Source of the DNA: a virus
IMG/VR virus record: IMGVR_UViG_3300045988_103986
Coordinates: 1 to 64,000 of that record
Reading direction: 5' to 3' (one strand)
DNA: 64,000 nucleotides
Below are positions 7,008-44,548 of the stretch, one piece after another. The position numbers and the translations under genes were made by a program. Position 1 is the first letter of the stretch, and every line of letters begins with the position of its first letter. The notes under the pieces were generated by a model. That model did no database searches. It saw nothing but the letters and a program-made list of their open reading frames with translations, and had not been told where the DNA came from.

Positions 7008-7052
7008 CCTCTATTTTCAGCATACTCATGCCTCCAAATGATTTAGGTCATA
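7008..7052 (-). promoter_or_regulatory. module-start element, copy 1
   Basis: Reverse complement TATGACCTAAATCATTTGGAGGCATGAGTATGCTGAAAATAGAGG; 5 copies in the window, each at the head of a gene block. Confidence 0.55.
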
Positions 7053-7190
7053 TGAAAAAACACCCATATGTTCTGCACATACGGATGTTTAAGGAGTATT
7101 CATAACTTTTTCTCTATTTTCGTGTCACAGGTGTTGGCTCAACGCCAGAAAAAATTTTTTTGCATTGCATCCCATCGCACGTTTTTGGAA

Positions 7191-9661
7191 TCAGATTACA
7201 TCGAACAGGCACAGATTGTCGTTCTGCTGAGACTCGTCAAACTCCTTCAGGTAGCCGACCGCATCGCGGAAGTAGTCATTATTGAGCTCGATGGTGTAGC
7301 CACGTCTGCCGGCCTTGATGGCTTCCAGTGCAACGGTCCCGAGTCCGCCGAACGGGTCAAGCACCAAATCCCCAGGGTTGCTGTACCGGTTGATGAGCCT
7401 GTCGACGATATCTAGCTGAAGCGGGCAAACGTGGTTCTCTTTCCGTCTCTGGCTCTGCGTCGTGTTGAGCGTCCGCATTCGGTTGATATCGTCCCACACT
7501 TGGTCTGTCCAGCTTCCGGGCGCAACTACCATGAACGTGGCCGGCAGATGCCCGTCCTTGTCAAGCTCTTTCGCCAGTTTTACATGCTCGTCATAGCTGT
7601 AAACGGAATCACGGCTGTATTTCCGATAAATTGCTTGCAACTTTCCCGTGTCAGTATGCAGCAGTTCGTCTTTCGTAATCAGCCGATTTCCGGAACTGCG
7701 CCAGAACCCGTGTGCATCGATCTGCCATTGAGCGCGTGTGTATTCGTCCTTCGTCTTGGATACGCGCTCATCTGCATATGCTTTGGAGCGGTCGGTTGGA
7801 AGCTTCCGGAATAGCAAGATGTACTCCGGGCAGCCGACACCCATTTTTGTCCCGTCCTTGCACTGCTCAGACCATCCAAGCCGGTACGTCTGGTTGTTCT
7901 CTCGAACGACGTCCGTAACGACCGTAATCATGCCAAAGTACGCAAAACCGTGCTTCATGTAATGGCTGATACACATGGCATGAAACGGCTCCATCGTCGG
8001 CATACCGGTTCCGGTCGCGTTGCCGAAAAGAACGCGGTCTTTTACATGGCAGCAGAAGACACGTCCAGGTTTCAGCACGCGCAGAAGGTTCGGGGTCAGA
8101 TAGTCCATCTGCTCAAAGAACTTTTGCGTATCTTCGTTGTGACCGAAGTCGTTATAGCTTGGTGTGTACTCATAGTGATTTGAAAACGGAATCGATGTGA
8201 CAATCAGATCGACGCTGTTGTCCGCCATCTTTTCCGTTTCCTCGCAGCAGTCATTGTTGACCGCAATCCAGTTTTCGCCTTTGATCTCCACTCTCTCAAC
8301 TCCTATGCTTCTTTCCATTTCCTGTTTCATGCGTTCGCCTGAGAGACCATATTTCTTGACAATATCTCGCATCTGCTCCTGCATGTAGTCGTGTTGCTTC
8401 CATTTCTTTTGAAGCACGTCCCAGATTGGAATCTCCGCCTCCGTGTAGATGATGTCCACAATGACCTTCTCCGTCTGTAAAAAGCGGTAGCAACGGTGAA
8501 TGGCCTGAATGAAGTCGTTGAACTCATAGTCGATCCCAACGAAAATCATTCTGTGGCAATGCCTCTGGAAATTGCATCCCTGTCCGGACAGCTCCTTCTT
8601 CGTCGCAAAGAGCCGGATTTTGCCGTCCGAGAAGTCAATCACACGGCGTTCTCGCTCGTCATAGTCCATCGTTCCGTAAATCTCTACGGCCTCTGGCATA
8701 ACTCTGTGAATTTCGTGCCGCTCCGCTTCAAGATCGTGCCAGAGGATAAAGCTTGCGTTTGGGTCACTGTCGACGATTTCTTTTGCTAAACGGACTCTTG
8801 CAGCTATTGTCTCACGTTTTTCGCGTGATGCCTCCTGAAGGTTTGTGGCAGAATCGTTCATCATCTTCACTTGACCATCCCGGTCCGTGATCTTTCCGAA
8901 TTCGTCGTGAACAACATGCGTTCTGACTTCGAGTCCAGGAAGTTCATATCCCTCGTCAGAATATCCGAGGTCTGACGGTTTTCCAAGGAACAGCGCCCAT
9001 GAACTGACCCACAGCCAGAATTCTTCTTCACGGTGGGGATAGAGGGTCAGGTTGTTGGCCTTGGTGCTGTCCCGCTTGAAGAACCGTGTAAGGGCCTGTC
9101 CGGTGTCCATGACTTCGAGATATCCTGCATAGTGGATGATCTCTTTGTACTTGTTCGGTGCCGGAGTGGCCGTTGCTACCATCTTGTATTTGACACCCTT
9201 GAACTTTTGGAGGAACGTCTGATAGGTCTTGCTTCCAAACGAGCGCAGCACCGACGCTTCGTCAAGGCTCGTCGCCGCGAAGTACGCCGGGTCGATATCC
9301 CCGTCCCGGACGCGCTCATAGTTGGTAAGCATGATCTCCACCCCGGCATTCTCGCGTACCTCCTGCATCGTCCGTACATAGACCGGCTCTTCGTATCCCA
9401 GAATATTCACGGCGTCCCGCTTGAACTCCTGTCGAACGCCAAGCGGAAGCACAATCAACGCTGGCCTTCCTTCATGTTTCGCGGCATGATGGCAGAACTC
9501 CCGTTCCTGTACAGTTTTACCCCACCCCGCAGCGCCCAGCGCACTGCGTCTCTCTGGTGCGGTTTCAGCGCTTGATTGATATCTTCTTCCGGAACGGAAA
9601 AGCCGCTCACCGGAGCTGTCTCGATTTTTGATTTCAGAAATTCCAAGTATTTGCTGTTCAT
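7191..9661 (-). CDS. SNF2/DEAD-like helicase fused to a beta-class amino DNA methyltransferase; N-terminal 45 aa lie in another frame (frameshift near 9520-9545)
   Basis: Helicase motifs GWGKT and SLDEAS. Methylase motifs DLIVTSIPF (motif IV) and DPFGGLGT (motif I). The true start MNSKYLEFLKSK...LKPHQRDAVRWAL is in ORF 9455-9661. Confidence 0.8.
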
Positions 9662-9669
9662 CTTGTCTC

Positions 9670-10485
9670 CTATACAAACACAGTGTCATCCAAGACCTGC
9701 GCATTGTTTGTGATTTTAACTGTCATATCGTCTGTCAGCGTAATAATGACTTCCGCTTTAGATGCTGCAAATGGCAATAAGGCAGATTTATACTCTTTAC
9801 AGACCATCCGTTTCCCATCTTCCATTGTGAACTTGTTCCCGCTTGAATCCTTGTACACGCAATCTGGATTGCACGTTGCGAGTTTTGCGTATCTTCCGAT
9901 AAATGTCGGGGACATCTCTGCATACTTCGGGTACTCTTTCACGAAACGGTCATATTCCACTGGAAACAGTCTTTTGAATTGGTGCAGGAAATTCGGTACG
10001 GTTTCATCCGCATATTTCGTGACAATATCTCCGCACATATTTCGTGGGTTATAGCCAAGTACGTTGTCCAAATTGTCCGGTGTCAGCATTGGCCTGTCCA
10101 CTAGTAAATGTTGATTTGTGAATATCGCCGTTGATGCGTTCAGTCGTCTTCCGTCCAATTTGAGGTCAACGTAAGGAAGATTCAGATACGCCATATCTCC
10201 AATGCGAATTACATACCAATAGGATGGGTATCTGAGTTTACGATATTCTGGCGAATGCCGCGCTGCGTCTGTCACAGTGTCATAGCGTTTGCTCTGTTTT
10301 GTGCCTCCATCCACTTTTTCAACTCTGCCAAGTTCACACCGTCGGTTGAACGGTATGGTAACGTTCAGGCATTTTCCCTCGTGGTATGCGGAGCATTCCT
10401 GCGCGTGATCGCAGTAAATATATTCTGCCCGAAGCCGGTTATTTCGTTTTCCTTCGCCGTAGAGAGCAACGTTTATGAGCGCCAT
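9670..10485 (-). CDS. hypothetical protein, 271 aa
   Basis: Long ORF abutting its neighbours; Cys cluster CDHAQECSAYHEGKC near the N-terminus. Confidence 0.6.
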   Translation of the reverse strand: MALINVALYGEGKRNNRLRAEYIYCDHAQECSAYHEGKCLNVTIPFNRRCELGRVEKVDGGTKQSKRYDTVTDAARHSPEYRKLRYPSYWYVIRIGDMAYLNLPYVDLKLDGRRLNASTAIFTNQHLLVDRPMLTPDNLDNVLGYNPRNMCGDIVTKYADETVPNFLHQFKRLFPVEYDRFVKEYPKYAEMSPTFIGRYAKLATCNPDCVYKDSSGNKFTMEDGKRMVCKEYKSALLPFAASKAEVIITLTDDMTVKITNNAQVLDDTVFV

Positions 10486-20962: not shown

Positions 20963-21161
20963 CTGTCTTGGCTCCTTTCTCAAGCCTGTCAATCATCTCG
21001 GCCGTACAATCGACGCCGCACATCAGAGTTCCGATCTCCCCTGTTGCCTCCAGCCCGCGCTCTTCAAACCAATCTTCCAGTTCCCATCTCAACTCATTCG
21101 CCCGCGCAGCCATGTCCGCAAGCTTATGCAGTTTATATCTGATTCCCAGTGGAATTTTCAT
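20955..21161 (-). CDS. hypothetical protein, 68 aa
   Basis: Coupled ORF. Confidence 0.45.
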   Translation of the reverse strand: MKIPLGIRYKLHKLADMAARANELRWELEDWFEERGLEATGEIGTLMCGVDCTAEMIDRLEKGAKTDG

Positions 21162-21556
21162 CTACCCAGTTTCCTTTCCTGTGAAAAGATCTCAAACGAC
21201 GTTCCCGTCTCGCCCACTTTGATTCGCCCCTTGCAGAAGATCCGCAGATATCCGCACGGCAAACAATCAATCGACCACGCCGGCAGCGCCATCTTCCGAT
21301 AATCGCACGGCCCGAACCATTCTCCATGGCCTCCAATTCCCTCCAGCTCCAGCGTCTCCGAGCACCCGGACAACCGCACGACCGGTTCATCCCCAATGCA
21401 CCCCACAAAGTCCATCACGCCCCACCGGCTGAAGCAGTTATCGTCTCCATCGACCGGAATGATGACCAGACTATCGAACGCCGGACTCTTACTATTGAAT
21501 CTCTCCCTGCGAGGGACCGCCTCGAAGTCTTCCTTCTTCATTTCTCGAATATCCAT
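21158..21556 (-). CDS. hypothetical protein, 132 aa (first gene after module element 2)
   Basis: AGAGGGAGG RBS inside the conserved element. Confidence 0.55.
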   Translation of the reverse strand: MDIREMKKEDFEAVPRRERFNSKSPAFDSLVIIPVDGDDNCFSRWGVMDFVGCIGDEPVVRLSGCSETLELEGIGGHGEWFGPCDYRKMALPAWSIDCLPCGYLRIFCKGRIKVGETGTSFEIFSQERKLGR

Positions 21557-21571: not shown

Positions 21572-21616
21572 CCTCTATTTTCAGCATACTCACCCCTCCA
21601 AACGATTTATGTCATA
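21572..21616 (-). promoter_or_regulatory. module-start element, copy 2
   Basis: Reverse complement TATGACATAAATCGTTTGGAGGGGTGAGTATGCTGAAAATAGAGG. Confidence 0.55.
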
Positions 21617-22139
21617 CGGTTTTACTTCGAATAGTTTTAAAAACTCCACGTTTCACACGAAACGCCGAACTTATAGTGCAGCTTCGCCGAACCGCAGCCG
21701 CTACCCACCTGCTACCTATCTCAAATATTTTTTCTTACCGTCCGTAGGACACCTGCTTCGTTGCCGTAAGGCAACCGCGCAAATTTTTATTTTTGGGGTA
21801 TGCCCCTATTCGATTCCAATTTTTTGCCCCAGGTTTGGAAAATACCCCCCTCCCCCTATGCTGCATATAAAAAGAAAGCGCCGGCCGAAGCCGACGTCGT
21901 ATGTTCTTCATTATGTGTCCGTGCAGGAGCCATCTCCCTTCGGGGTTTTGAGCCAAGGCAGGGATTGCAGGGGCTTTTTCTATTGATGAGCGGTTTTTCT
22001 TGGCTTGGGGTGTCGAGGTGTGGAACGCCTGGGCGGGAGGAAGTGCTATACCCTGTTCTGAAAATTGGGGCGCTCCTGGACTTGTAAAATGGGGGGTATC
22101 CTGCAAACCGTGGCGGGAATCCTGCATTTCTCGCCGGGT

Positions 22140-22172
22140 GTCGTTTCCTTTACTACCTGTAAAGGAAACGAC
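22140..22172. other. perfect 14-bp-stem hairpin / inverted repeat in an ORF-free tract
   Basis: GTCGTTTCCTTTAC tacct GTAAAGGAAACGAC. Confidence 0.8.
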
Positions 22173-22713
22173 AACGGGGTTATTTTGCAAGATTTCCGTC
22201 ATAACTTGCAAGAATGCGCACTTTGGGCGGTCGTTTGTGTGACACGTCCGGCCCGGCGGGCTTGGCTGTCGGTCAGGGGCTGACGCGAGAACCGGCAGGG
22301 GCTGGGGCTTTGCCCGGAAGTTGCCGCCTGAACAGACGGACGCCGGGGACACTTTCCCCGTCCCCGTTGTGCTGGGTCCTTGCGTTGGTGAAGATGATCT
22401 GTTTGATGGGGTGCGGCTGTGTTGGTTGGTGTCCTGTGGTGCCGGGCTGGTAGGTGGTGCAGGTGGTGGAGCTGGCTGGGATGAAGCTATGCTATAGTGT
22501 ACTATAGAACGCCTGGGCAAACAACGCACGCGCACGCATGACGCGCGGGCACGCATACGCGACGCGGGCGCACGCGCGCGCGTATATAATATAGAGTGGC
22601 GGTGGGAGCATGTGCGGGGCGTGGTGAGGCTGTGCGGGGCTGTGGCGGGGTGATGGATAGGGCTGCGGGGCTCTGGTGACGTGCTAGGGGCTGCGCGTGC
22701 CCTGCGTAGGCGG

Positions 22714-23436
22714 TTAAGCCTGCGCAAGGTAGCGGGCGCGGATCTTATCGATTCGGCGCTGTATTGTGCTCTTGCTGGTGCCAAGGGCTGCAGCAATGGT
22801 GCGGACGGTGTGCCCGTCTGCCAGTGCGCGGACGATCCGCCGGTCGAGCTCGTCGACGGCTGCGGCCTCGATCGCGGCGCGGGTGATGGCTGAATCTTCG
22901 GGGCTGGTGATGGGGGCGGCGGTGACGCTGGGCAGCATATCAACTATACTCTGTGCGTTGTCGTCGCCGTCGTTGTTGTATCTGTTGTCTGGGATTTGGC
23001 AGCAATTCGACGTGTGGCGGTACTCGCTGCGGGCGATGACGTGCGCGGCCTGGGTGCAAGCGGCGTACAGGATATGGGACAACGGGCGCGGCTCGCCGCT
23101 CTGCTCGTTGCGGGTGAGGGCAGGGGCAACGCGGGGCCATGCGTCAGCGGCGACGGTCTGCGCGTCGTCCGGGCATTTGATCCACGCGGTATCTGCTGCG
23201 CGTCCGGTGGCCTCGGCGCGGTGCTTGACGGTCCACGACATGCGGATCAGTGCGGTAAACTGGGCTTCTCCGTCCATGTTGTCCCACTCGCGGCGGGCTG
23301 CTGTGGCGGCTTGGGCGGCTCTGTGCGCCTCTTTCAGGCAGATGGCAAACTGTGCGCGGCTGCGCGTCTCTGGGAACTCTGCGACGGTGGCGCGGTACAG
23401 GCTCCACGCCTGCCGCATGATCTGTGCTTTACTCAT
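22714..23436 (-). CDS. HTH DNA-binding protein with a sigma-70 region-4/LuxR-like C-terminus
   Basis: C-terminus DELDRRIVRALADGHTVRTIAAALGTSKSTIQRRIDKIRARYL; GC-rich codon usage unlike the flanks. Confidence 0.55.
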   Translation of the reverse strand: MSKAQIMRQAWSLYRATVAEFPETRSRAQFAICLKEAHRAAQAATAARREWDNMDGEAQFTALIRMSWTVKHRAEATGRAADTAWIKCPDDAQTVAADAWPRVAPALTRNEQSGEPRPLSHILYAACTQAAHVIARSEYRHTSNCCQIPDNRYNNDGDDNAQSIVDMLPSVTAAPITSPEDSAITRAAIEAAAVDELDRRIVRALADGHTVRTIAAALGTSKSTIQRRIDKIRARYLAQA

Positions 23437-23485
23437 GGGTACGATCTCCTTTATTCGTTTTATTTGATGGGGCGGCTGGTGTGCG

Positions 23486-23761
23486 TCAGCCTGCCGGGGT
23501 TGCGTCGATGACTGCGGGGCCGGAAAACGTCAGCTGCACGCGGTCGCCTCTGCGGTAGTCTCCGGTATCGGTGTACCATGTCCAGCACTCGCCGCGCGTG
23601 TCCTCGCCGGTTACGGCGTCCGTGTCGGCGCTGACGCGCTCCACTGCTACGATCTGGGCCGGTGCGGTGTCCGTTGCCTGTTGTCCCTGCTTGGGGCTTG
23701 TGCAGGCGGTCAGGGCGGCCAGAAGGGCCGCCGCGCCTGTGATGATCTGTATCCGCTTCAT
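23486..23761 (-). CDS. lipoprotein, 91 aa
   Basis: Start MKRIQIITGAAALLAALTAC (lipobox LTAC) behind GGAGAGGAG. The longer 155-aa ORF is Arg-rich nonsense. Confidence 0.6.
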   Translation of the reverse strand: MKRIQIITGAAALLAALTACTSPKQGQQATDTAPAQIVAVERVSADTDAVTGEDTRGECWTWYTDTGDYRRGDRVQLTFSGPAVIDATPAG

Positions 23762-23991
23762 GTTTTGCTCTCCTCTCCGACGGTGAACTCTCCGGCCCAT
23801 GCGCGGATGATTGATCCGGCCTCGGTCACGGCGGTGATCCAGCCGCTGACGTTCGCGGCCTTGCGGCAGCGGATGACGTGCCCGCGTCCGGCGTTGTAGT
23901 CGATTCGCAGGCCCTCGGCGGCTGCGGCGCGGATCTCGGCGGGCGTGTGCCATTGCGGGCGGTCCGTGGGACTAATGTTGATTGGTAGCAT
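23758..23991 (-). CDS. hypothetical protein, 77 aa
   Basis: ATGA overlap with the lipoprotein gene. Confidence 0.45.
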   Translation of the reverse strand: MLPINISPTDRPQWHTPAEIRAAAAEGLRIDYNAGRGHVIRCRKAANVSGWITAVTEAGSIIRAWAGEFTVGEESKT

Positions 23992-24003
23992 GATATTCTC
24001 CTT

Positions 24004-24234
24004 TCAGTTCTCGGTGAAGTACCGGCGCAAGGTGGAATCTTCCGGGCTTTCTGAATCCAGCCACGCATTAAACGCGCTGGGGTTGCGCTTTTCGAGTTCA
24101 TCCATGATCCAGCCGCGCGTGATCGTGGTTTCCGGTGATGTGCTGAGGAATTCCGTTGTTTCCCACGCTTTCAAAAGCTGTTCGTTTGTCAGTTTGGCGA
24201 TGATTGCCGGGGCTGGTGCGGTTTCGTGTTTCAC
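24004..24234 (-). CDS. hypothetical protein, 76 aa
   Basis: GC-rich island ORF. Confidence 0.5.
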   Translation of the reverse strand: MKHETAPAPAIIAKLTNEQLLKAWETTEFLSTSPETTITRGWIMDELEKRNPSAFNAWLDSESPEDSTLRRYFTEN

Positions 24235-24290
24235 TGTTCAAACTCCTTTCAGGTTGTCCCGGCGGCGTGTGCCGCCGGGGTGGTTGGTGA

Positions 24291-25049
24291 TTAAATGATG
24301 TACAGGGTGCCGTTGATCTCGGCGCTCACTGCTTCCTGCTGCATTTCTGCTTTGATCTGCTGGGCCAGCGTCAGCACGTCCGGCAGGCGTTCGCGGAGCT
24401 GGTCGGCGGTGCAGGCCGCGTAAACGATGGTCACGGCCTCGCGGATCAACCCGGCGGAATCGCTCAGCCAGTAGCCCGCGCTCGGTTGGGCGGTTGCGCC
24501 GCCGAACCAGCCGCAAAACTCGCGGGCGACGCGTTCAACCTGCGCGGCGTTGTCGGTGGCGTGGTTGATGTCCTGCGTGCCGGGGACGTAGAGCGCGACG
24601 CGCTGCGGGAGCTCCAGCGCGCCCGCCTGCTTCATGATCTCGGCGGTGTCCTGCGCTTCCTGCGCGGGTGCTTCCTGCTCCTGCGGCGCGGGCGGCGCGT
24701 ACTTGCTCATAGCCTGCGCAAGCTGGTTGATGTGCGCGGGGTGGATTTCTGCGGGCTGGTAGATGTTCTTTGCTTCCAGCTCGTCACGGGTCGCGGCGGT
24801 CTCGATGGTGGCGGCCCACTCGCGGGAGCTGGGCCATATTCTGCCGTCCCACTCGCCGACGGTGTTCACGATTTCAGCGATTGCTTCGCGGGCGGTATCG
24901 TATCCGATCTGCTCCACGATAGCGGCGACGGTCTCGGCGGGGGTCCGGTCGCTGGTTTCGCTGTAGATGTTTACCACGGTTTTGATGTTCGCGCGGGTGG
25001 TCTTGATCTGCTCGCGGCGGGCGGTGATCTCGGTTGCATTCATTTTCAT
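24291..25049 (-). CDS. hypothetical protein, 252 aa
   Basis: First gene of the leftward island operon, divergent from the RHH gene. Confidence 0.6.
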   Translation of the reverse strand: MKMNATEITARREQIKTTRANIKTVVNIYSETSDRTPAETVAAIVEQIGYDTAREAIAEIVNTVGEWDGRIWPSSREWAATIETAATRDELEAKNIYQPAEIHPAHINQLAQAMSKYAPPAPQEQEAPAQEAQDTAEIMKQAGALELPQRVALYVPGTQDINHATDNAAQVERVAREFCGWFGGATAQPSAGYWLSDSAGLIREAVTIVYAACTADQLRERLPDVLTLAQQIKAEMQQEAVSAEINGTLYII

Positions 25050-25114
25050 ATTGGTTTCTCCTTTCCCTTGCGGGGCGTTCGTTGTTTCATTTGATGGCTT
25101 GATTATAGTATAGG

Positions 25115-25274
25115 TTCAACCGTATGTCAAATTGGTTAAAAAGTTATGTTTAACCGTATCATTGTATAAGTTTAGCCGTATTCATGTGTGAAATGTTAGG
25201 ATTTCTCCGTTTTTTGGTCAACCGTATGTAAAAGTCACGATTTTATGAAAAAATCGCTAAAAATTAACCGTATA
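25115..25274 (+). repeat. five same-orientation WARCCGTAT boxes in a divergent intergenic region (iteron/operator-like)
   Basis: AACCGTAT at 25118, 25152, 25220, 25266 and AGCCGTAT at 25174. Confidence 0.7.
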
Positions 25275-25357
25275 TTTTGTGCATTCTGCCGATGGTACAA
25301 AACAGCCCGCGCCGGTAGAATAAAAGGCAAGAAGCAAACGAAAGCGAGGTACATTAA

Positions 25358-25879
25358 ATGCCGATTGCAAAGAATCCTAACGGGGCCCGGACCGACGCCG
25401 AGCGCCGCGCTCAAAACAAGTGGGATCAGGCGAACCGCGTGACGCTGGGCGTGCGCGTGGGCAAGGCGGACGGCGAGGCGTTCCGGGCGTGGTGCGCGGC
25501 GCGTGGTATCACAGTTAACGCGGCGCTCTCGGCCTATGTTGCGGAGTGCCTGCGGGGCGACGCAGACGGCGGCGCAGCTCCTGCGGCCGAGATTTTCCAG
25601 GCGGCGCAGCCTGGGCAGGCGGCAGGCGGTGAGGGTCTGACGCTTCCGGCAGACGTGGCGCGCCTTGCAAGTTTGGCGTCAAATCTTGCGGGAGATCCGG
25701 ACGCGCTCACCTGGGCGCGCCGGGCGCTGGAAACTGCGGCGGCAGCCGAGTCCGACGCATTCGAGCGCAAGCAGGCCGCTTTATCTTCGTTTGAAAAATT
25801 CAAGCCTGAACAGACGGCTCCCGGAAATTCTGGGGACCTACCATCTGAACAGGAAGGCCCGAAAACTCTGGGAGACTGA
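25358..25879 (+). CDS. ribbon-helix-helix (CopG/Arc-like) protein with an Ala-rich tail
   Basis: RRAQNKWDQANRVTLGVRVGKADGEAFRAWCAARGITVNAALSAYV fits a beta-alpha-alpha RHH pattern. Confidence 0.5.
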   Translation: MPIAKNPNGARTDAERRAQNKWDQANRVTLGVRVGKADGEAFRAWCAARGITVNAALSAYVAECLRGDADGGAAPAAEIFQAAQPGQAAGGEGLTLPADVARLASLASNLAGDPDALTWARRALETAAAAESDAFERKQAALSSFEKFKPEQTAPGNSGDLPSEQEGPKTLGD

Positions 25880-26569: not shown

Positions 26570-26591
26570 TGGCGCAGTAGCCCCGAACGGA

Positions 26592-26735
26592 ACAAACCAA
26601 GGAAACCAAGAAAACCAGAAAAACCAAGGGAAATATTGAACCGGACAAAACCAAGAAAACTGATGGAATCAGGAATCGGGAAAAACCAAAAAAAACTAGC
26701 TGAATACCGAAACCAACTAAACCGAGAAAACTAGT
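26592..26735 (+). repeat. cluster of ~8 AAACCAAGAAAAC-like words in non-coding DNA
   Basis: aaaccaaggaaaccaagaaaaccagaaaaaccaaggg...aaaaccaagaaaactg...aaaaaccaaaaaaaactag...aaaccgagaaaactag. Confidence 0.7.
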
Positions 26736-26769
26736 GGCTTCCGGAGTTGAAAATTTTTCTTAAAGTTCT

Positions 26770-26799
26770 GGGACAAATCAGAAAACGTTGTAGAACTAA
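26770..26799 (+). promoter_or_regulatory. cassette box pair P2
   Basis: GGGACAAAT cagaaaacgtt GTAGAACTAA. Confidence 0.5.
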
Positions 26800-26837
26800 A
26801 GGTAGAACATCAAAACTACTTTTTGGAGGTACGGAAA

Positions 26838-27161
26838 ATGAGCAAGCTTTACTTTATCGAGACAAACGGCGGCTGGTTGACAGTTGCAACAGACGAAGAC
26901 GGCCGCGCCTGCTATATGCGCGAGGATGGCCGTGAAGATGGATACCCAGACGCTGATCCGCGCTGGGCCGAATCAGACGCGCAGGAGCGCGAGACGATCG
27001 CCGAGAAGTGGCTGCGCTCCATTGCAGACTGGAACAGCTTTGATGACCTGTATGCGAACTGCGACGTACAGAGCGGTTTCTGCGGCGTTTACACCGTCGA
27101 GGACTTCAACGCAGATCTGGAAAACGGCAGCGACGAAATCATTGCAAGCATTGATTTCTGA
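26838..27161 (+). CDS. hypothetical acidic protein, 107 aa
   Basis: Start MSKLYFIETNGG behind GGAGG. Confidence 0.6.
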   Translation: MSKLYFIETNGGWLTVATDEDGRACYMREDGREDGYPDADPRWAESDAQERETIAEKWLRSIADWNSFDDLYANCDVQSGFCGVYTVEDFNADLENGSDEIIASIDF

Positions 27162-33333: not shown

Positions 33334-34857
33334 TTAAGTGCCCCGCATTTTCATGCTCTCACGATATTGCTCGGCATCCGGCAAATACTTAAAGTCCACT
33401 GTTTTGTCATAGTTTTCTCGGACGACTTGCTCGATTTCCTTTAGGCTTACATGAAAAAATTCTTTTCTCCCATTCACCATATTGACCCGTTTGTCCGCAA
33501 AGGCATTGTGAAGCGCTGTTTCCAGTTTCGGAGCATCATCTGAGAAAATCAGCGCATGAATATCGAATCTAAACGGAACCGATGCGCCTCCGAGTTCGTC
33601 AATTCGGTCTTTCGGTTCTAAGCGTCTGGTCATACCTATTTTGTAGACACCTTCACCGAATGCCCCGATGTTCGATATCACATAGACGTACCCGGCTCTC
33701 TCATTTGCAGCGCGATAATCCACATCCTTTAGCGCCTTCTCCAAATCAGAAATCTCTCCATTGACGGCCTCAATTTTTTCTTGGATAAGCTTCTTCCGCT
33801 CGTCATTCGATTCGCTTTCCATTTGCTCATTCAGGCGCTGCATAAGGTTCTCGTAGTGAATATGTTCTTTTTCGATTCGTCTACGTTCTTCTTCGATTTC
33901 CTTTTGTACTTTGAGATTTTCACGTTCAATTTCTCGTTGCTCGCGCGCACGTTCTTTTTCTTCCTGCTTCTTGCGTGCGTATTCATACGCAAGGGCAAGC
34001 TCCTTGTGTTTAAGCTCCAAAAACTCAAAGGATATTTGAATGGCATTCACAGCATTTATCCCGTTGATTTTTTTGTAAATCTGGTCTATCCGTTTTTTCA
34101 TGCTATCAAAATTGTTGAATTTCACTTTGTCGATAGCATTTTCACACTCTGTATTAAAGGACAAAAGCGCAGATTTTATGTTGTCTTCAATCATCTTTCT
34201 GCCCTGTGACAGACTTCCATTTACCTTCCACTGCGTGGAACAATTTGCCGCGACGCCTAACCGTATCATTCGCTTTTGATTCTCACGGCAGTTTTGCAGC
34301 TCTGCTTTGTATTCCTCTGACGACGCAAAGTCGTACATCGGCTTATAGAGGCCAAATTCCTGCATCAGTTTTTCATCTTCAAGTTCTACGACCGCCTCTC
34401 GCAGTTCTGCCCCTTTGCCAGCAAGTTTTTCGATTTCTTTCTGTCTTTGCAAAATGTCGTGTTCAAGTCGAGATTCTTCATTTTTGAGAATTGCAATGTG
34501 TTCTTTCGCAGCAATGATCTGGCCGTGTTCATCGGTAAAAGCATTTTCATAAAACGCCTTGTCTTGTTGTAAGGACGCGACACTACTCTGCAGTGCCGAT
34601 ATTTCCGAACTCTGGGAATCTGAACGTTCCTGTAGTTTTTTGCGCTCCATCTCAGATTTCTTTAAAGCCAACGTCAAATCAGCGCACTCTTTGGCTTGTC
34701 TGGAAACTTCTTGTAACAAGTGTTTTTTCTGCTGGGACGCCTGATTGAGTGATTCAGATAACTCCGCGACTTTTCTTCTTAACTCGTCAGCTTCTTTCTG
34801 TTTCGCTGCAAGGTTGTCCTTTAACTCTTGTACTCTGAATAAATCCGTAACTCCCAT
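33334..34857 (-). CDS. coiled-coil DUF4041 protein with a C-terminal T5orf172/GIY-YIG-like nuclease domain
   Basis: N-terminal heptad-rich 160 aa. DUF4041-like core GLYKPMYDFASSEEYKAELQNCRENQKRMI. C-terminus GYVYVISNIGAFGEGVYKIGMTRRLEPKDRIDELG...FRFDIHALIFSDDAPKLETALHNAF. AT-rich relative to neighbours. Confidence 0.8.
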   Translation of the reverse strand: MGVTDLFRVQELKDNLAAKQKEADELRRKVAELSESLNQASQQKKHLLQEVSRQAKECADLTLALKKSEMERKKLQERSDSQSSEISALQSSVASLQQDKAFYENAFTDEHGQIIAAKEHIAILKNEESRLEHDILQRQKEIEKLAGKGAELREAVVELEDEKLMQEFGLYKPMYDFASSEEYKAELQNCRENQKRMIRLGVAANCSTQWKVNGSLSQGRKMIEDNIKSALLSFNTECENAIDKVKFNNFDSMKKRIDQIYKKINGINAVNAIQISFEFLELKHKELALAYEYARKKQEEKERAREQREIERENLKVQKEIEEERRRIEKEHIHYENLMQRLNEQMESESNDERKKLIQEKIEAVNGEISDLEKALKDVDYRAANERAGYVYVISNIGAFGEGVYKIGMTRRLEPKDRIDELGGASVPFRFDIHALIFSDDAPKLETALHNAFADKRVNMVNGRKEFFHVSLKEIEQVVRENYDKTVDFKYLPDAEQYRESMKMRGT

Positions 34858-34894
34858 TTCACATCAGCCTCATCAAATTATAATAAAAGTATAT

Positions 34895-34923
34895 TGACAG
34901 CATCATTTTATTATGCTATTATT
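34895..34923 (+). promoter_or_regulatory. canonical sigma-A promoter
   Basis: TTGACA - 17 nt - TATTAT, 22 nt upstream of the RHH start. Confidence 0.7.
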
Positions 34924-34945
34924 ATGCTTGAAAGGAGGATATTGC

Positions 34946-35104
34946 ATGGCACGACCGAAAGAGAACACTGAGCGGATAACCGTTTTCTTCCCGGCGGATG
35001 CACTTGAAAAAATGAAGGAAGAAGCTAAACGCCGTGGAATGACCGTAAGCGGATACGTTCGTTTTGCAGTTCTTGAATATCTCCGTGAAAGCCGAGATAA
35101 ATAA
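34946..35104 (+). CDS. ribbon-helix-helix (CopG-like) protein, 52 aa
   Basis: MARPKENTERITVFFPADALEKMKEEAKRRGMTVSGYVRFAVLEYL; AAGGAGGA RBS. Confidence 0.7.
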   Translation: MARPKENTERITVFFPADALEKMKEEAKRRGMTVSGYVRFAVLEYLRESRDK

Positions 35105-35199
35105 AAAATCGAGCAACCGTAGCTAAGTTTGGCGACCCACTACGATTGCTCTTGTGCCAAAACCGCAGGGGTTTTGTCTATTCAAGTATAGACGAAGCG

Positions 35200-35228
35200 C
35201 CCTGTAAAAGTCAAGCACTTTTACAGGG
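35200..35228 (+). terminator. 12-bp-stem hairpin, terminator-like
   Basis: CCCTGTAAAAGT caagc ACTTTTACAGGG followed by a T-rich stretch. Confidence 0.5.
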
Positions 35229-35315
35229 ATTTCTATACCCTTTTTCAGGAATTTCAGAATAGTTTTAAAAGCATCCGCAGCCCCTACAAATTTCGAACAT
35301 TTCGCCTATAAACGG

Positions 35316-35361
35316 TATGACCTAATTCATTTGGAGGCCGAACTATACTGAAATTAGATGG
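35316..35361 (+). promoter_or_regulatory. module-start element, copy 3
   Basis: TATGACCTAATTCATTTGGAGGCCGAACTATACTGAAATTAGATGG. Confidence 0.55.
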
Positions 35362-35395: not shown

Positions 35396-36223
35396 ATGAG
35401 CTATTTAGAAACGATCAACAACACCAATATCGCAATCAAAGAGTATCAGGGGCAGCGCGTCGTCACGTTCAAGGATGTTGACACAGTGCATGGAAGACCG
35501 GATGGAACCGCGCGGAAGCGTTTCAATGACAACCGTGAACACTTCATCGAAGGCGAAGATTTCTTCAAAGTTAAGTGTTCTGAGGTGCGTCCGTTTTTCG
35601 GACAGACCCCGCCGAACGGTTTTAACCCCGATGCAGACATTGTTCTCGTGACTGAATCTGGCTACCTCATGCTTTCGAAGTCCTTTACAGACGATAAAGC
35701 TTGGCAGGTACAGCGGCAGCTTGTGAAGGGTTACTTCCGGGCAAAAGAAGCCGTGCAGCTCTCCCCTGCCGAACAGCTGCTTGCGCAGGCGCAGCTCATG
35801 GTCGAGCAGGAGCGTCGGATCAAGGCTCTGGAAGCCAGTAACGCCGAAAACGCACGGGCAATGGAGACGGTCAAAGACGCCATCGACATCATGGTAGCGC
35901 CGCCCGTAACGGCTGGCAACTGGCAGAGCCAGATGAACCGGAACGTCCGCGCATTCTGTATGCAGACGGGCCTCGACTTCCACGAAACGTTCAGACAGCT
36001 TTATGCGGAACTGGAAGTATCGGCCGGTGTCAAGCTTGGTGTCCGCGTTAAGTTCGCACGCCAGCGTCTGCAGGTCAACGGCGCAACACAGACCGAGATC
36101 GCGGCCGTCTCAAAACTCAGCATTGTCGCGCAGGACAAGAAACTGCGAGAGATTTTCAACAGCCTGTACAACCGTATGGTTGCCAGATACACAATCAATA
36201 CGGACAGAACACAGAATCGTTAA
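35396..36223 (+). CDS. ORF6N-domain antirepressor-like protein
   Basis: IKEYQGQRVVTFKDVDTVHGRPDGTARKRFNDNREHFIEGEDFFKV. Confidence 0.75.
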   Translation: MSYLETINNTNIAIKEYQGQRVVTFKDVDTVHGRPDGTARKRFNDNREHFIEGEDFFKVKCSEVRPFFGQTPPNGFNPDADIVLVTESGYLMLSKSFTDDKAWQVQRQLVKGYFRAKEAVQLSPAEQLLAQAQLMVEQERRIKALEASNAENARAMETVKDAIDIMVAPPVTAGNWQSQMNRNVRAFCMQTGLDFHETFRQLYAELEVSAGVKLGVRVKFARQRLQVNGATQTEIAAVSKLSIVAQDKKLREIFNSLYNRMVARYTINTDRTQNR

Positions 36224-38251: not shown

Positions 38252-38280
38252 TTGACTTTTGGGGCTACATGAATTATATT
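38252..38280 (+). promoter_or_regulatory. canonical sigma-A promoter overlapping an inverted repeat (operator-like)
   Basis: TTGACT - 17 nt - TATATT; CATGAAT tatattgt ATTCATG spans the -10. Confidence 0.65.
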
Positions 38281-38313
38281 GTATTCATGGGCTACAAGAA
38301 GTGAGGTGAAAAC

Positions 38314-38481
38314 ATGAGTCCACGCACTGGACGCCCGAAATCAGAGAATCCCAAATCAAACCCGCTTCACGTCCGTTTGGACGATAAGACGCTGAAAGTT
38401 CTTGACGATTACTGCGAAAGAACCGGCAAGAAGCGCACAGAAGCCATTCGGGACGGGATTCTCTTATTGGAAGGTAAATAA
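38314..38481 (+). CDS. ribbon-helix-helix (CopG-like) protein, 55 aa (below ORF-track cutoff)
   Basis: My own translation: MSPRTGRPKSENPKSNPLHVRLDDKTLKVLDDYCERTGKKRTEAIRDGILLLEGK; GAGGTG RBS. Confidence 0.65.
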   Translation: MSPRTGRPKSENPKSNPLHVRLDDKTLKVLDDYCERTGKKRTEAIRDGILLLEGK

Positions 38482-38656: not shown

Positions 38657-39382
38657 ATGAATGAATTGGCGAAAATTATTCCCATCAACACCGAAAACCC
38701 CGAACGAATCACGGTCTTTGCCCGTGACCTGCACGCATTCTTGGAAGTCGATACGCGCTTCAATGACTGGTTTCCCAGAATGTGCGAATTTGGTTTTGAA
38801 GAGGGAAAAGACTTTTACTCATTTTTGAGTAAAACCCAAAACGGCGGTAGACCGTCCAGAGACGCAGAACTCACTATTGATATGGCAAAAGAAATCTGCA
38901 TGTTGCAGCGCAACGAAAAGGGCAAAATCGCGCGCCGCTATTTCGTCGAACTTGAAAAGGCGTGGAACAGTCCGGAGAAGGTCATGGCGCGGGCTTTGCA
39001 GATTGCAAACAATCAGGTAAAGCAGTTACAGGCGAAAATCGAAGCCGACGCGCCCGCCGTGTTCTTCGCCGAAGCCGTAACTGGCGCGGACACAAACATC
39101 CTCATCCGTGATATGGCGAAACTGCTTGCGCAAAACGGCGCAGACATTGGTGGGAACCGTCTGTTCGAGGTTTTGCGCCGGGATGGATATCTCATCAAGT
39201 CGGGCAGCGATTACAACATGCCCACGCAAAAGGCCATGGAACTCGGCCTGTTCTTCGTAAAGGAAACGCCGCGCATTGCCAAGGAAGGAGCCGTCATTGA
39301 TCGGACGACCAAGGTAACACCGAAAGGCCAGAAATATTTTATCAACAGATACGCGCCGAAGAAAGCGCTATTGGAAAATTGA
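38657..39382 (+). CDS. AntA/KilAC-type phage antirepressor
   Basis: VFARDLHAFLEVDTRFNDWFPRMCEFGFEEGKDF...TIDMAKEICMLQRNEKGKIARRYF (AntA), then IRDMAKLLAQNGADIGGNRLFEVLR...MELGLF (KilAC). Confidence 0.85.
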   Translation: MNELAKIIPINTENPERITVFARDLHAFLEVDTRFNDWFPRMCEFGFEEGKDFYSFLSKTQNGGRPSRDAELTIDMAKEICMLQRNEKGKIARRYFVELEKAWNSPEKVMARALQIANNQVKQLQAKIEADAPAVFFAEAVTGADTNILIRDMAKLLAQNGADIGGNRLFEVLRRDGYLIKSGSDYNMPTQKAMELGLFFVKETPRIAKEGAVIDRTTKVTPKGQKYFINRYAPKKALLEN

Positions 39383-39404: not shown

Positions 39405-39611
39405 ATGAATATCAAAGAAATCTATGAGCACACACAGAATGTCGACGGCTGGATTCTCGGCATTGATGGCAGCGCAAGCCCGGTGGATCTGAGCAATCCG
39501 GCAATCATGGCCGGTGTCGGGAAATTCCATGTGAAGACGATCTATCCGGAATTCGACGACGGCAAAATCATCGTCGAGCTGGACGTTGCCACCACGGTTG
39601 AGACCGATTAA
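39405..39611 (+). CDS. hypothetical protein, 68 aa
   Basis: AAGGAG RBS. Confidence 0.55.
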   Translation: MNIKEIYEHTQNVDGWILGIDGSASPVDLSNPAIMAGVGKFHVKTIYPEFDDGKIIVELDVATTVETD

Positions 39612-39728
39612 AAAATATTTTTTCGGCTTCCTCGCGGCACTTCGGCTGCGACAACTCCAAATATTCTTCGACAAGTTCCGAATTTTCCTTCTCTTTTGGA
39701 GATATCTGAACTTCTTCGACAGTTTTTA

Positions 39729-39773
39729 TATGACCTAAATCATTTGGAGGCATGAGTATGCTGAAAATAGAGG
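39729..39773 (+). promoter_or_regulatory. module-start element, copy 4
   Basis: TATGACCTAAATCATTTGGAGGCATGAGTATGCTGAAAATAGAGG followed by a CAA-rich leader. Confidence 0.55.
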
Positions 39774-39831: not shown

Positions 39832-40191
39832 ATGACAAAAACCGAATGCGCAGTCTATGATCTGCTCAAGGAAATCGGCGTACCGACTCACAAAAAAGGC
39901 TACGCCTACATTCAGGAGGCAGTCACCAACAAGTACGATGGCAAGTACGAAGACTTCTCCATCACCGGGCCGAAAGGCATCTATTGCGACGTCGCAAAGA
40001 AGTTCAGGACTGAGGCCAGCCGGGTGGAACGTGACATTAGATCGGCTATCGATTACGCGTTCAACTACGGAGATCCCAAAGTGCTGTACGGCATCTTCGG
40101 AAACTCCATCGCTCCCGGAAAGGGAAAGCCAACAAACGCCATGTTTATCTTCCAGTGCGCAAAGGAACTTGAGCGGCGAAAGTCGGCTTGA
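39832..40191 (+). CDS. stand-alone Spo0A C-terminal (DNA-binding) domain homologue
   Basis: LLKEIGVPTHKKGYAYIQEAV / IYCDVAKKFRTEASRVERDIRSAIDYAF / KPTNAMFIFQCAKEL align with B. subtilis Spo0A [21 protein letters not shown] / [28 protein letters not shown] / KPTNSEFIAMVADKL (from memory). Confidence 0.85.
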   Translation: MTKTECAVYDLLKEIGVPTHKKGYAYIQEAVTNKYDGKYEDFSITGPKGIYCDVAKKFRTEASRVERDIRSAIDYAFNYGDPKVLYGIFGNSIAPGKGKPTNAMFIFQCAKELERRKSA

Positions 40192-42089: not shown

Positions 42090-42126
42090 GTTCCCGCAAG
42101 ATACCCGCAAAAAACGTAGATTTTCC

Positions 42127-42160
42127 GGGACAAATCCGGAATCCAGGTAGAACAGTAAAT
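42127..42160 (+). promoter_or_regulatory. cassette box pair P14
   Basis: TTCCGG GACAAA TCCGGAA tccag GTAGAACAGTAAATGTAAG (box 1 forms a hairpin loop). Confidence 0.5.
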
Positions 42161-42204
42161 GTAAGCAATCACACAACAACAATTATTTTATGGAGGTAAA
42201 AACA

Positions 42205-42909: not shown

Positions 42910-42919
42910 TAGGCCCGCC

Positions 42920-44395
42920 GAACGGGGCAATGGAAATGCGTCGCCCGGCCCAGCCTGGATTGGCATCGCAAAGGAGCAGCACTGCTCAGCGAAGCTCAGC
43001 GCAGCAAAGGAAAAGCGAGGTAGCGCAAGGCGTAGCAACGGAGAGGTGGAGCGCCGCACAGTCAAGAACTGCATAGGCCCGGCTGAATTCTGTTTTGGGA
43101 CGTGAAGATCAGCGAAGGCTTCGCGGGGCGATGCGTATCTCAGCAACGCAAAGGAAAAGCGGAGACTGGCGTAGCGCTGAAATGGAGCGGCTGGGAGATG
43201 TTTCGCATAGTGAAGGCGAAGTATTGAGAAGCAGTGACCAGGAAACAGCCCACAAGCCCCTGCCTTTAGGCATGGTGATAGTCTAAACATACGGTAGGGC
43301 GGGACACGCCCGAACCTATACGCTCGGGGAGACTATGTAAGACGCCACTACGGTGCAACGGTCGCTGAACTGAGAATCCCTCGGCTTTAGCCGTGGGGAG
43401 TGTCAAACGCGATGGCTGGGCATCGAAATGAGTCGCCTTGATGCGCCCGGAAAAGCAACGGCATTGCAGGGTGAAGCAACGCGTAGCGGAGGCAAGGCAG
43501 AGTGCAGTCGTGCTTGGTATAGCAAAGGAATGGCAAAGCAGTGCACAGAAATGCAAGGGTGAAGGACTGAGCTGCAAAGCATTGTTTGGCAATGGCATTG
43601 AGATGAATCGAAGCGCGATGGACTTGCTCGGTACTGCGCAGCAAAGGCTCTGTGAGGGTTAGCTTTGAGACGCGAAGCAATGGCGATGCACCGAGAAGCC
43701 GGGAGAGGCCAAGGAACGCAATGGTTCTGCACTGCTTTGAATCGCAACGGCGTCACATAGCATGGAAACGCATGGCGAAGCAAAGGCAAGGCGGAGAGTA
43801 GCTACCTACTGCTGAGGAATGCAAAGGATTAGTTGAGAAGCGAGTAGCCACGCAAAGGTAAGGCTAGGAAGGGCTAAGCGTAGCGACGCATCGGCACAGT
43901 GTATAGTGTGGCCGGGCGCTGCAATGGCAGAGCGAGGCGTGGCCTTGCGGAGAAAAGCAGTGGCGAAGCAACGCGAGGAAAAGCAAAGATTAGCAACGGC
44001 ATAGTACAGTATCGAATGGTCGGGTTATGCAAGGGAATGGCGACGAGTCGCACGGACCGGCACAGCGCGGCAGGGCATAGCAGAGGCATGGAACTGCGAG
44101 GCGATGCACGGGTTTGCGAAGGGAAAGCGGTGCAAATCGAAGTGCGGAGCGGCAACGAAAACGTAAAGGAATGCCACGCAGTGTGATGGATAAGGATTGC
44201 ATGGGAACGCTCTGAAACGCGAAGGTGAGGCGTGGCTTGGTAAGGAGATGAGCCGCGCCGATATGCAAAGGCAGGGAAGGGTAATGCAAAGAAATGCAAC
44301 GGATGAGCAAGGATAGGCACAGGGCAGCGATGTCTGGCAATGGGAAGGCGACGTCCGGTAACGTGACGCGAGGGCTTTCAACTGTCTGCGAAAAA
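42920..44395 (+). repeat. ORF-free purine-rich tract with 22 same-strand GCAANGG motifs
   Basis: Stops in all frames. Motif starts include 42927, 42968, 43004, 43035, 43148, 43455, 43522, 43553, 43589, 43641, 43677, 43718, 43744, 43780, 43821, 43852, 43921, 43993, 44029, 44265, 44296, 44337. I found none on the - strand. Confidence 0.8.
43234..43406 (+). mobile_element. miniature tnpB-less derivative (LE joined to RE/omega-RNA scaffold) of the IS at 48152-49471
   Basis: 43234-43275 is nearly identical to 48152-48193. 43285-43406 is ~90% identical to 49350-49471, ending GGGGAGTGTCAA. Confidence 0.8.
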
Positions 44396-44507
44396 ATTTT
44401 TTGATGTCTATTGGGTGCTAAAAACGCTCAAGGAGACGTTCGCTCTGCATAATGTTCTGATACCGCATATATTTCCGAACTTACCAGAACATTTTAGCTA
44501 AAAACAA

Positions 44508-44548
44508 TATGACCTAAATCATTTGGAGGTCCGAGTAAAATAAAAAGT
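44508..44548 (+). promoter_or_regulatory. module-start element, copy 5 (upstream of integrase)
   Basis: TATGACCTAAATCATTTGGAGGTCCGAGTAAAATAAAAAGT. Confidence 0.5.

Follow-up and report, generated by a model that had tools for sequence, protein, structure and literature searches.

A 45-bp element repeated five times in a large human-gut phage is a probable control region for transcription initiation

A 45-bp element occurs five times in a 64,000-nucleotide stretch of the IMG/VR virus record IMGVR_UViG_3300045988_103986 (positions 1 to 64,000, here called the window), which is part of a large phage of roughly 108 kb from human-gut metagenomes. The element is a real cis-regulatory unit under selection and very probably a control region for transcription initiation. 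Each copy can be read as a phage-specific, non-canonical promoter that would head a transcription unit in the non-structural part of the genome. In the favoured version of this reading, to which we give a probability of about one half, the element would be a promoter devoid of a -35 hexamer that depends on the primary sigma factor of the host and needs a phage factor at an ATG...CATTTG box, supplemented by a clade-specific upstream operator. Host RNA polymerase would read a TAnnnT hexamer as the -10 and start transcription about 7 nt past it, near element position 41, once a phage-encoded factor has bound the box and recruited or repositioned the polymerase. A TGAC box further upstream would represent a displaced -35-like hexamer that stays on one face of the helix, at 21 or 32 bp from the -10, an upstream cassette would serve as operator for a second regulator, and an A/T palindrome in the clade of the window would probably provide bent DNA. 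The outcome would be one delayed-early or middle regulon comprising replication and nucleotide genes, antirepressor-like genes, a Spo0A_C gene and the integrase gene. Phage-specific promoter classes served by a phage-encoded specificity factor are a known strategy, and the element would not be a new kind of system.

The five-copy repeat is real and not a product of chance. Its first half, the 22-mer TATGACCTAAATCATTTGGAGG, matches the window five times at no more than two mismatches, and none of 100 shuffled sequences contained any match. The copies are named E1 to E5 (Table 1), and position 1 of each is the first T of TATGACC. Only three of them (7008, 21572 and 39754) have an exact second half, GAGTATGCTGAAAATAGAGG, which reads AACTATACTGAAATTAGATG in E3, the copy at 35316, and GAGTAAAATAAAAAGTGTAA in E5, the copy at 44508. 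Compared in pairs, the five copies are on average 95% identical at positions 1-22 and 67% identical at positions 23-45; mean identity drops to 37% in the 45 nt upstream and reaches a background of 24-31% further out on both sides. Neither a profile search nor a position weight matrix search of the window found additional copies, weaker ones included; the sequence CATTTG-N10-TATAGT at 25087-25108 was discarded as an extra copy, being the reverse strand of the -10 region of a canonical PL promoter. According to a gene map based on codon usage, all five copies are intergenic and oriented toward the following gene. Match counts and gene map thereby confirm an earlier note on this DNA that had reported a 45-bp element in five copies, oriented with the downstream genes. 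The TATGCT/TATACT/TAAAAT hexamer that the note had placed 20 nt past TGACCT, too far for a standard sigma-A promoter, indeed sits at this distance.

In exact and degenerate pattern scans, the element turned up solely on IMG/VR contigs 57-108 kb long, each of which holds four to five copies. The copies of the relatives are all orthologous to E1-E5, and the motif is confined to this phage family and to the same kinds of site. GTDB genomes, when scanned, gave just five matches, all in unrelated taxa (Nitrosomonas, Nostoc and others) and read as chance. INPHARED contained no near match to the phage; its unannotated entry MT835520 encodes a sigma factor 45% identical to that of the window, without the motif. 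Hundreds of homologues of this sigma factor, the protein encoded at 22714-23436, lie on human-gut metagenome contigs of about 105-120 kb and separate into two clades. Clade A includes the window, and its sister clade B is about 80% identical at the protein level. On the clade-A contigs examined, all copies of the clade-A type fall into the same five classes, four to five per long contig, intergenic and co-oriented with the genes. Clade-B copies are located after the helicase-methylase gene (E1), before a gene for a 129-aa protein (E2), before a Bro-N antirepressor gene and before an integrase homologue (E5); the integrase copy was revealed by a 14-base degenerate scan of IMG/VR that otherwise gave mostly chance matches. 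The Spo0A_C gene is present in clade A only. The clade-B layout reads TTGACA, TTTACA or TAGACA, preceded by a terminator in the E1 and E3-like copies, then TAA, about 8 nt, AAAAAAA, CATTTG-N10-TAnnnT, an A-rich stretch, a Shine-Dalgarno sequence and the start codon.

In ten clade-A contigs whose neighbourhoods are mosaic, E3, E4 and E5 are retained and the genes around them exchanged. Mosaic junctions thus coincide with elements: the genes upstream and downstream of E3 and the region upstream of E5 have been swapped and the element kept, as might be expected of a recombination linker or a mobile cassette that is maintained for module exchange or selfish spread. Such an origin is very improbable, given that each genome holds four to five copies at equivalent sites, co-oriented with genes and never inside one, that terminal repeats and an association with transposases are lacking, and that the conservation of TAnnnT and of fixed spacings is the pattern of a recognition site. 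Recombination at shared promoters is a known by-product of their common sequence. The alternative offered by the earlier note, a selfish repeat unrelated to gene starts, is contradicted by the recurrence of the same five intergenic, co-oriented classes in the relatives.

The core of the element was defined by an alignment of ten versions, the five paralogs of the window and five versions from clade B. The arrangement ATG-N8-CATTTG-N10-TAnnnT is invariant among paralogs and relatives. It consists of ATGA (positions 2-5), N6 and TCAT (12-15), which overlaps CATTTG (13-18), followed by N10 and TAnnnT (29-34). The invariant columns are ATG (2-4), AA (9-10), C13, TTTG (15-18), T29, A30 and T34, while the inner three bases of the hexamer are free and read TGC, TAC, AAA, TGA, AAC or GAA. 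Hexamers found in clade B are TATGAT, TAAACT, TAGAAT, TAAAAT and TATGCT, and the integrase copy carries a perfect TATAAT. The -10 hexamer of the sigma-70 family is defined by T-12, A-11 and T-7, with inner bases that vary freely. Judged by this pattern of constraint, TAnnnT bears the signature of a sigma-70-family -10.

A matching -35 hexamer is not found. With TAnnnT at -12 to -7, the -35 position falls on positions 6-11, which read CCTAAA in clade A and AAAAAA in clade B and are not usable. A scan for the canonical sigma-70 consensus found nothing at the pair of TGAC box and TAnnnT in any of the five copies, the sites that it listed being elsewhere or on the other strand. An extended -10 (TGn) is equally missing, the TG in TGAGTATGCT being one base out of register and absent from E3 and E5. 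The consensus sequences of sigma-54, sigma-H, sigma-E/K/F/G and the Bacteroidetes-type promoter were compared by eye, and none fits the invariant positions. The TGAC box reads aTGACc in clade A and TTGACA in clade B and is separated from TAnnnT by 21 bp and by 32-33 bp, respectively.

In activator-dependent promoters, such as those served by lambda CII and T4 MotA, a box covers the -35 region and keeps a constant spacing to the -10. The versions of the element share a box over the -35 position at a fixed distance from TAnnnT, and in either of two possible alignments of the clades the conserved box would straddle the -35 position at a fixed distance from the putative -10. The left half of the element evolves differently from the right. 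Among clade-B paralogs, identity over the 22 nt to the left of CATTTG amounts to 86-100%, and among the clade-A paralogs the 22-mer reaches 95%, but orthologs across the clades share only 41-45%. The right half (36 nt) tends to follow orthology: orthologs are 58-72% identical versus 44-58% for non-orthologs, with the recently homogenised E1/E2 pair as the exception. Since its identity is high among paralogs and low across clades, the left half must have changed at all promoters together. Such a concerted change is what would be expected of a box co-evolving with one trans-acting factor, and gene conversion possibly helped.

Concerted evolution of the left half would also be compatible with a repressor. 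The 22-mer could mainly be an operator that silences five weak promoters, for example in the prophage state, with the GTTC/GAAC dyad further upstream as a cooperative second operator. Operators are typically the best-conserved repeats of temperate phages, the 22-mer contains the inverted repeat ATGA-N6-TCAT, which underwent a two-sided change in clade B, and several potential dimeric DNA binders are encoded in the window (RHH proteins at 34946-35104 and 38314-38481, an HTH_39 protein and an XRE regulator at 52308-52811). The arms of the dyad measure only 3-4 bp, however, promoters lacking a -35 would be very weak without an activator and leave little to repress, and the main switch region of the phage uses another repeat, AACCGTAT. 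We regard a predominant repressor role as unlikely; it is compatible with, and partly contained in, the favoured reading of an activator-dependent promoter.

Several observations weigh against this favoured reading. The clade-B integrase copy has a perfect TTGACA and a perfect TATAAT exactly 32 bp apart, and we know of no described mechanism that accounts for such a pair. The alignment of the TGAC box is ambiguous: MAFFT favours an ungapped alignment over one with an 11-nt indel. The ungapped version places TATGA over AATGT and converts ATGA-N6-TCAT into ATGT-N6-ACAT in clade B, with both arms changed, and this covariation of the dyad amounts to a single evolutionary event. The indel version keeps TGACATAA aligned (8/8 for E2) and the box on one helical face. 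In clade A, GAACaTtTt-N12-TATGAC resembles a promoter of the extracytoplasmic function (ECF) type, which would shift the start about 28 nt upstream. Finally, searches of about 50 proteins of the window with Pfam and PHROG found no member of the CII, MotA/AsiA, RinA, ArpU or Alt-type families.

The unusual spacing allows for a further possibility, which we consider improbable. TGAC/TTGACA might be the true contact of sigma region 4, displaced from its normal site, with a box-bound phage factor that repositions region 4 of the primary sigma factor of the host or bends or loops the DNA. The polymerase would then use a -35 hexamer located 4 bp (clade A) or 15 bp (clade B) beyond the normal position, and since these positions differ by 11 bp, the box would stay on the same face of the helix in both clades. 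If true, this would be a new form of sigma appropriation, and the perfect TTGACA and TATAAT of the clade-B integrase promoter would be kept silent until the phage factor is made.

The regions upstream of the copies offer further clues. Terminator-like hairpins are found directly upstream of E1, E2 and E3. The hairpin at 35200-35228, which the earlier note had described in place of a palindrome at the one remaining copy (E3), is a stable stem-loop (z = -4.5) with the properties of an intrinsic terminator. In clade B, hairpins with T-runs, read by eye, abut the box upstream of the E1 and E3-like copies. At the E3-like copy, the terminator tail TTTTTTAGG of clade B abuts TAGACA, and clade A has 65 extra nt there. 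As the terminators abut the box, transcription must restart at this point.

This order of terminator and element also bears on a role at the RNA level. The element could act as a 5' leader or as a processing, antitermination or translation signal on transcripts begun further upstream. The block is conserved near start codons, and E1, E2 and E4 contain GGAGG followed 7 nt later by an ATG that opens a short upstream open reading frame (uORF; MLKIEG...). The consensus fold has an energy of -0.4 kcal/mol with 0 compensatory pairs, no Rfam match occurs at the elements, and the terminators precede rather than follow them, the wrong order for a nut-like site. GGAGG as a ribosome-binding site with its uORF was rejected: motif and ATG are missing from E3 and E5, and clade B reads GTTGG, GCTGC or GCAGC at this position. 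An RNA-level element is therefore highly unlikely.

Upstream of the box, clade A possesses a cassette of about 60 bp that separates it from the preceding terminator or gene. The cassette contains the dyad AAGTTC-N29-GAACwT, whose half-sites are 33 bp apart from centre to centre. Nine independent clade-A versions of the upstream region were compared: GTT at -54 to -52 is invariant, AAC at -20 to -18 is kept in eight of nine, and the sequence in between is scrambled. The upstream profile matches its own reverse in all five copies of the window. As RNA, the cassette folds inconsistently among the nine versions, so an RNA hairpin was rejected and a DNA-level operator is likelier. On these grounds the dyad is most likely an operator for a second regulator, a feature that the earlier note had missed. 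Short GTTC-N0-3-GAAC palindromes and 0A boxes were rejected as a general operator code because they are neither enriched nor present in all copies; 0A boxes (TGNCGAA) number 53 in the window versus about 31 expected, and two perfect ones lie upstream of E4 only, the other copies having none.

Cassette-like sequences also occur outside the five elements. Within the A/C-rich non-coding stretch 26580-26837, tandem AAACCAAGA repeats (26594-26628) are followed by an AnTn palindrome (26750-26758), the fourth of the window, and by AAGTTCTGG...TAGAAC...TAGAACAT, which is like a clade-A cassette without the 45-mer and lies directly before the ribosome-binding site of the gene at 26838-27161. A distant relative (L154), whose sigma factor is 42% identical and sits in a different gene context, is devoid of the motif. 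Its positions 2750-2800, upstream of the sigma gene, contain three tandem AGTTCTAAGAAG repeats (AGTAGTTCTAAGA) with half-sites (GTTC...GAAG) that resemble clade-A cassette boxes, for instance AGTTCTAAGAAC of version E5c.

The A/T palindromes, which the earlier note had counted as part of the control region, turned out to be a more peripheral feature. Their coordinates could be verified, the one at 21723-21733 being weaker (A6TATTT on the element strand). AnTn palindromes (n of at least 4) occur four times in the window, which is not above Markov expectation; three of the four precede an element by about 100 bp, and this association is therefore not chance. They are situated about 45 bp beyond the cassette, and two variants of E5 do without one. 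Palindromes and dyad cassette are restricted to the clade of the window, and clade B has intrinsic terminators at that position. A function of the palindromes as terminators was rejected on the basis of their folds (z = 0.05, 0.56 and 0.23, and -2.2 for the one at 39610) and the lack of a U-run after any of them. They are probably accessories, either bent DNA or an accessory binding site, and not part of the conserved core.

One candidate for the trans-acting factor is the protein encoded at 22714-23436, a divergent two-domain ECF-type sigma factor. Its family profile matches E. coli sigma-E in the PDB (E = 1.3e-7; profile positions 95-239 to chain residues 45-186, covering both domains), and also SigH, AlgU, CnrH and SigW. 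Pfam Sigma70_ECF is matched by 29 of 55 family members. The AlphaFold 2 model (predicted local distance difference test score, pLDDT, of 88) consists of helical domains at 1-145 and 179-239 joined by a disordered linker, and its top Foldseek matches are ECF sigma factors in initiation complexes, with probabilities of 0.95-0.99, E-values of about 1e-2 and low template modelling (TM) scores. The gene belongs to the early operon of the perfect PL promoter. A non-coding stretch of 1.1 kb, which includes a strong terminator, separates it from E2, and this layout suggests a cascade.

This sigma factor might read the elements directly. The proximal (a)GAAC with its T-rich stretch would then form the -35, and TATGAC, located 17 nt downstream, the -10. 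The start site would fall near position 12-14, and CATTTG...TAnnnT would become a conserved leader. The assignment of the protein by profile, Pfam, AlphaFold 2 and Foldseek and the early position of its gene just upstream of E2 are in line with this idea, as is the proximal consensus aGAACaTtTt at a fixed N17 from TATGAC, which resembles the ECF consensus. ECF promoters have an AAC motif, a -35-proximal T-tract (tGAAACnTTTt) and a 14-17 bp spacer (PMC5758882). TATGAC, however, is not a CGT-type -10, only E2 and E3 reading CGTAT or GGTAT; one independent version (E5b) has AAT instead of AAC; and the invariant TAnnnT would be left unexplained. The clade-B sigma factor is 80% identical with a nearly identical region-4 recognition helix, but a GAAC box is absent from E1, E2, the E3-like copy and E5 of that clade. 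Because clade B lacks the box despite the same recognition helix, direct recognition by the sigma factor is a rival of small though appreciable probability and not the preferred explanation.

The genes of the window at 95-25049 all point leftward, those at 25358-54511 rightward with one exception, and those at 54585-63971 leftward. The divergent control region 25050-25358 contains a perfect leftward TTGACA-17-TATAAT promoter (25102-25130, minus strand) and five AACCGTAT(G/C/A/T) repeats. It is likely to be the main repressor/operator switch of the phage, and its perfect canonical promoter indicates that the host polymerase uses canonical promoters. The phage encodes an integrase and appears to be temperate; the Spo0A_C gene, a Cse60-like match and Cu_amine_oxidN1 neighbours suggest spore-forming Clostridia as hosts. 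The earlier note had interpreted the element as the promoter and operator of a regulon and as a candidate lysis-lysogeny switch. The regulon is backed by the upstream terminators, the invariant TAnnnT and the upstream dyad. The switch is not: nothing ties the element to the decision, and a switch-like region exists at 25050-25358. The mixture of replication, antirepressor-like, Spo0A_C and integrase genes fits a temporal class better than a decision switch.

The favoured reading can be compared with several known systems. Lambda CII activates several promoters (PRE, PI, PaQ) in one temperate phage through a box over a poor -35, one of them drives the integrase gene alone, and the -10 is read by the primary sigma factor of the host, features that the element would share. 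CII recognises TTGC-N6-TTGC; with TAnnnT at -12 to -7, ATGA would lie at about -39 to -36 and TCAT at about -29 to -26, the same geometry. The element differs by arms that are inverted and not direct, by the replication genes in its regulon and by an additional displaced -35-like TGAC box, and no CII-like protein was found. T4 middle promoters combine a MotA box at -30 with a sigma-70 -10 at a spacing of 11-13 and depend on sigma appropriation by AsiA and MotA. The element resembles them in that a phage box a short fixed distance (N10) upstream of a TAnnnT -10 would replace the -35 and in that a temporal promoter class would be spread over the genome. It differs by CATTTG versus TGCTT, by another host lineage, by the lack of detected MotA/AsiA homologues and by the integrase of an apparently temperate phage.

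With ECF (group 4) promoters, the clade-A element shares an AAC box and T-rich stretch 17 nt from a hexamer, and the phage encodes an ECF-like sigma factor; the -10 is not of the CGT type, clade B is devoid of the box, and the box is one arm of a 33-bp dyad. The late promoters of Firmicute phages (phi29 p4/A3, TP901-1 Alt/Plate) likewise consist of a -10 without a -35, with regulator sites and bent or A-tract DNA 40-100 bp upstream. They are single late promoters versus five copies here, their site sequences are unrelated, and no p4 or Alt homologue was found. The contiguous, nearly identical block of about 22 nt at the head of several units is reminiscent of T7-like RNA polymerase promoters; no phage RNA polymerase gene was seen in the window, and TAnnnT with a TTGACA-like box would point to a holoenzyme of the sigma-70 family. 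MerR-type promoters have spacers of 19-20 bp with a dyad operator centred inside the spacer. A separation of more than 18 bp (21 bp) between -35-like and -10-like hexamers is common to both; the spacer here measures 21 or 32-33 bp, the dyad overlaps the -35-like box, and no MerR-family gene was seen.

Table 1. Positions in the window of the five element copies, their upstream regions and associated genes
Feature	Position	Strand	Details
E1 22-mer	7031-7052	-	match at no more than 2 mismatches
E2 22-mer	21595-21616	-	match at no more than 2 mismatches
E3 22-mer	35316-35337	+	match at no more than 2 mismatches
E4 22-mer	39729-39750	+	match at no more than 2 mismatches
E5 22-mer	44508-44529	+	match at no more than 2 mismatches
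E1 core 45-mer	7008-7052	-	ATGA 7048-7051, CATTTG 7035-7040, -10-like TATGCT 7019-7024
E2 core 45-mer	21572-21616	-	CGTTTG 21599-21604, TATGCT 21583-21588
E3 core	35316-35361	+	CATTTG 35328-35333, TATACT 35344-35349
E4 core	39729-39773	+	CATTTG 39741-39746, TATGCT 39757-39762
E5 core	44508-44552	+	CATTTG 44520-44525, TAAAAT 44536-44541
E1 upstream cassette	7053-7112	-	distal GTTA 7103-7106, proximal GAAC 7070-7073; terminator-like hairpin and T-run 7058-7090
E1 A6/T7 palindrome	7149-7161	.	97 bp upstream of E1, just past the stop codon of the SNF2-helicase/methylase gene
E2 upstream region	21617-21733	-	proximal AAAC 21634-21637 (TTGAAC in a 90% relative), distal GTTC 21667-21670
E2 upstream, further features	21648-21665; 21723-21733	-	weak hairpin; A6TATTT
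E3 upstream region	35148-35315	+	terminator-like hairpins 35148-35172 and 35200-35228, then distal GTTT 35262-35265, proximal GAAC 35295-35298
E4 upstream region	39610-39728	+	A6TAT6 palindrome 39610-39623, distal GTTC 39675-39678, proximal GAAC 39708-39711
E4 0A boxes	39667-39673; 39715-39721		two perfect TTCGACA, upstream of E4
E5 upstream region	44391-44507	+	A6T6 palindrome 44391-44402, distal GTTC 44454-44457, proximal GAAC 44487-44490
uORFs beginning MLKIEG	7019-7030; 21583-21594; 39751-39762		about 36, 9 and 25 codons (E1, E2, E4)
Gene before E1	7191-9704		SNF2-helicase/N6-N4 methylase
Genes downstream of E1		-	63-aa protein 6807-6998, HTH_39 protein 6572-6793, DUF3310/kinase-like, cell-wall hydrolase, others
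Genes downstream of E2 (long leftward array)		-	132-aa protein 21158-21556, YopX, PAPS reductase-like, ATPase, others
Genes downstream of E3		+	ORF6N 35396-36223, Lar-like, DUF6291
Gene downstream of E4	39832-40191	+	Spo0A_C-like
Gene downstream of E5	44565-45653	+	tyrosine integrase
Divergent ECF-type sigma factor	22714-23436	-	240 aa; early leftward operon, 1.1 kb upstream of E2; candidate trans-acting factor
Strong terminator-like hairpin	21879-21896	-	CGTCGGCTTCGGCCGGCG, then T-run; between sigma-like gene and E2
Other candidate factors	34946-35104; 38314-38481; 50347-50622		RHH, RHH and HU; also HTH_39, Spo0A_C and small unannotated early proteins (23486-24234)

The surroundings of the elements show further features. 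The early leftward operon at about 22400-25050, which includes the sigma-like gene, has a G+C content of 62-68%, compared with 51% in the window as a whole. The 1.1 kb that separate the sigma-like gene from E2 (21617-22713) are without a credible open reading frame. This stretch is C-rich on the gene strand, reverses the sign of its GC skew at about 21.8-21.9 kb and contains alternating CG/CA repeats (22524-22582) and GCGGGGCTGTG repeats (22614-22650). The same layout is found downstream of the sigma gene of MT835520 (L153), a distant relative, and the stretch might serve as a replication origin or encode a long non-coding RNA. Upstream of E3, the slot at 33334-35104 is a mosaic hot spot among relatives (L049-L058), occupied by T5orf172/DUF4041 in the window and by endonuclease-I/HIRAN or Cu_amine_oxidN1 in some relatives, and the gene downstream of E3 alternates between ORF6N and P22_AR_N. 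A canonical promoter, TTGACT-17-TATATT at 38254-38282, overlaps the palindrome ATGAAT...ATTCAT and precedes an RHH gene (38314-38481) and an AntA/KilAC antirepressor gene (38657-39382); in clade B (L066), the equivalent Bro-N gene is driven by an E-type promoter instead.

Three tRNA genes are carried by the phage, Gly-TCC, Gln-TTG and Met-CAT (46008-46081, 49512-49588 and 50245-50319). The gene for an HU-like DNA-binding protein (50347-50622) precedes those for a MazF/PemK-like toxin (50679-51224), a 361-aa protein and an XRE-type regulator (52308-52811). An endolysin (CHAP-NAGPA-SH3), receptor-binding-like proteins and a TnpB protein are encoded at the right end of the window. Two TnpB/IS605-OrfB (Cas12f-like TNB) genes are present in total, at 48234-49346 (plus strand) and 57511-58614 (minus strand). 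Related contigs have TnpB-type genes at other positions (for instance 11130-12233 in L053 and 11031-12134 in L054), which marks the insertions as recent and mobile.

Large phages of gut Clostridia are abundant and almost entirely uncharacterised, and to our knowledge nothing is known about the timing of their gene expression. The element provides a concrete regulon: five putative promoters that follow a precise consensus, of which two natural architectural variants exist (spacings of 21 bp and 32 bp). The consensus is a handle for the annotation of transcription units in hundreds of related metagenomic contigs. The left half, exchanged in concert at every promoter between clades A and B, would represent a clean natural case of co-evolution of a cis-element and its recognition factor. 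If the displaced -35 box is functional, it would reveal a novel means by which a phage redirects the polymerase of its host.

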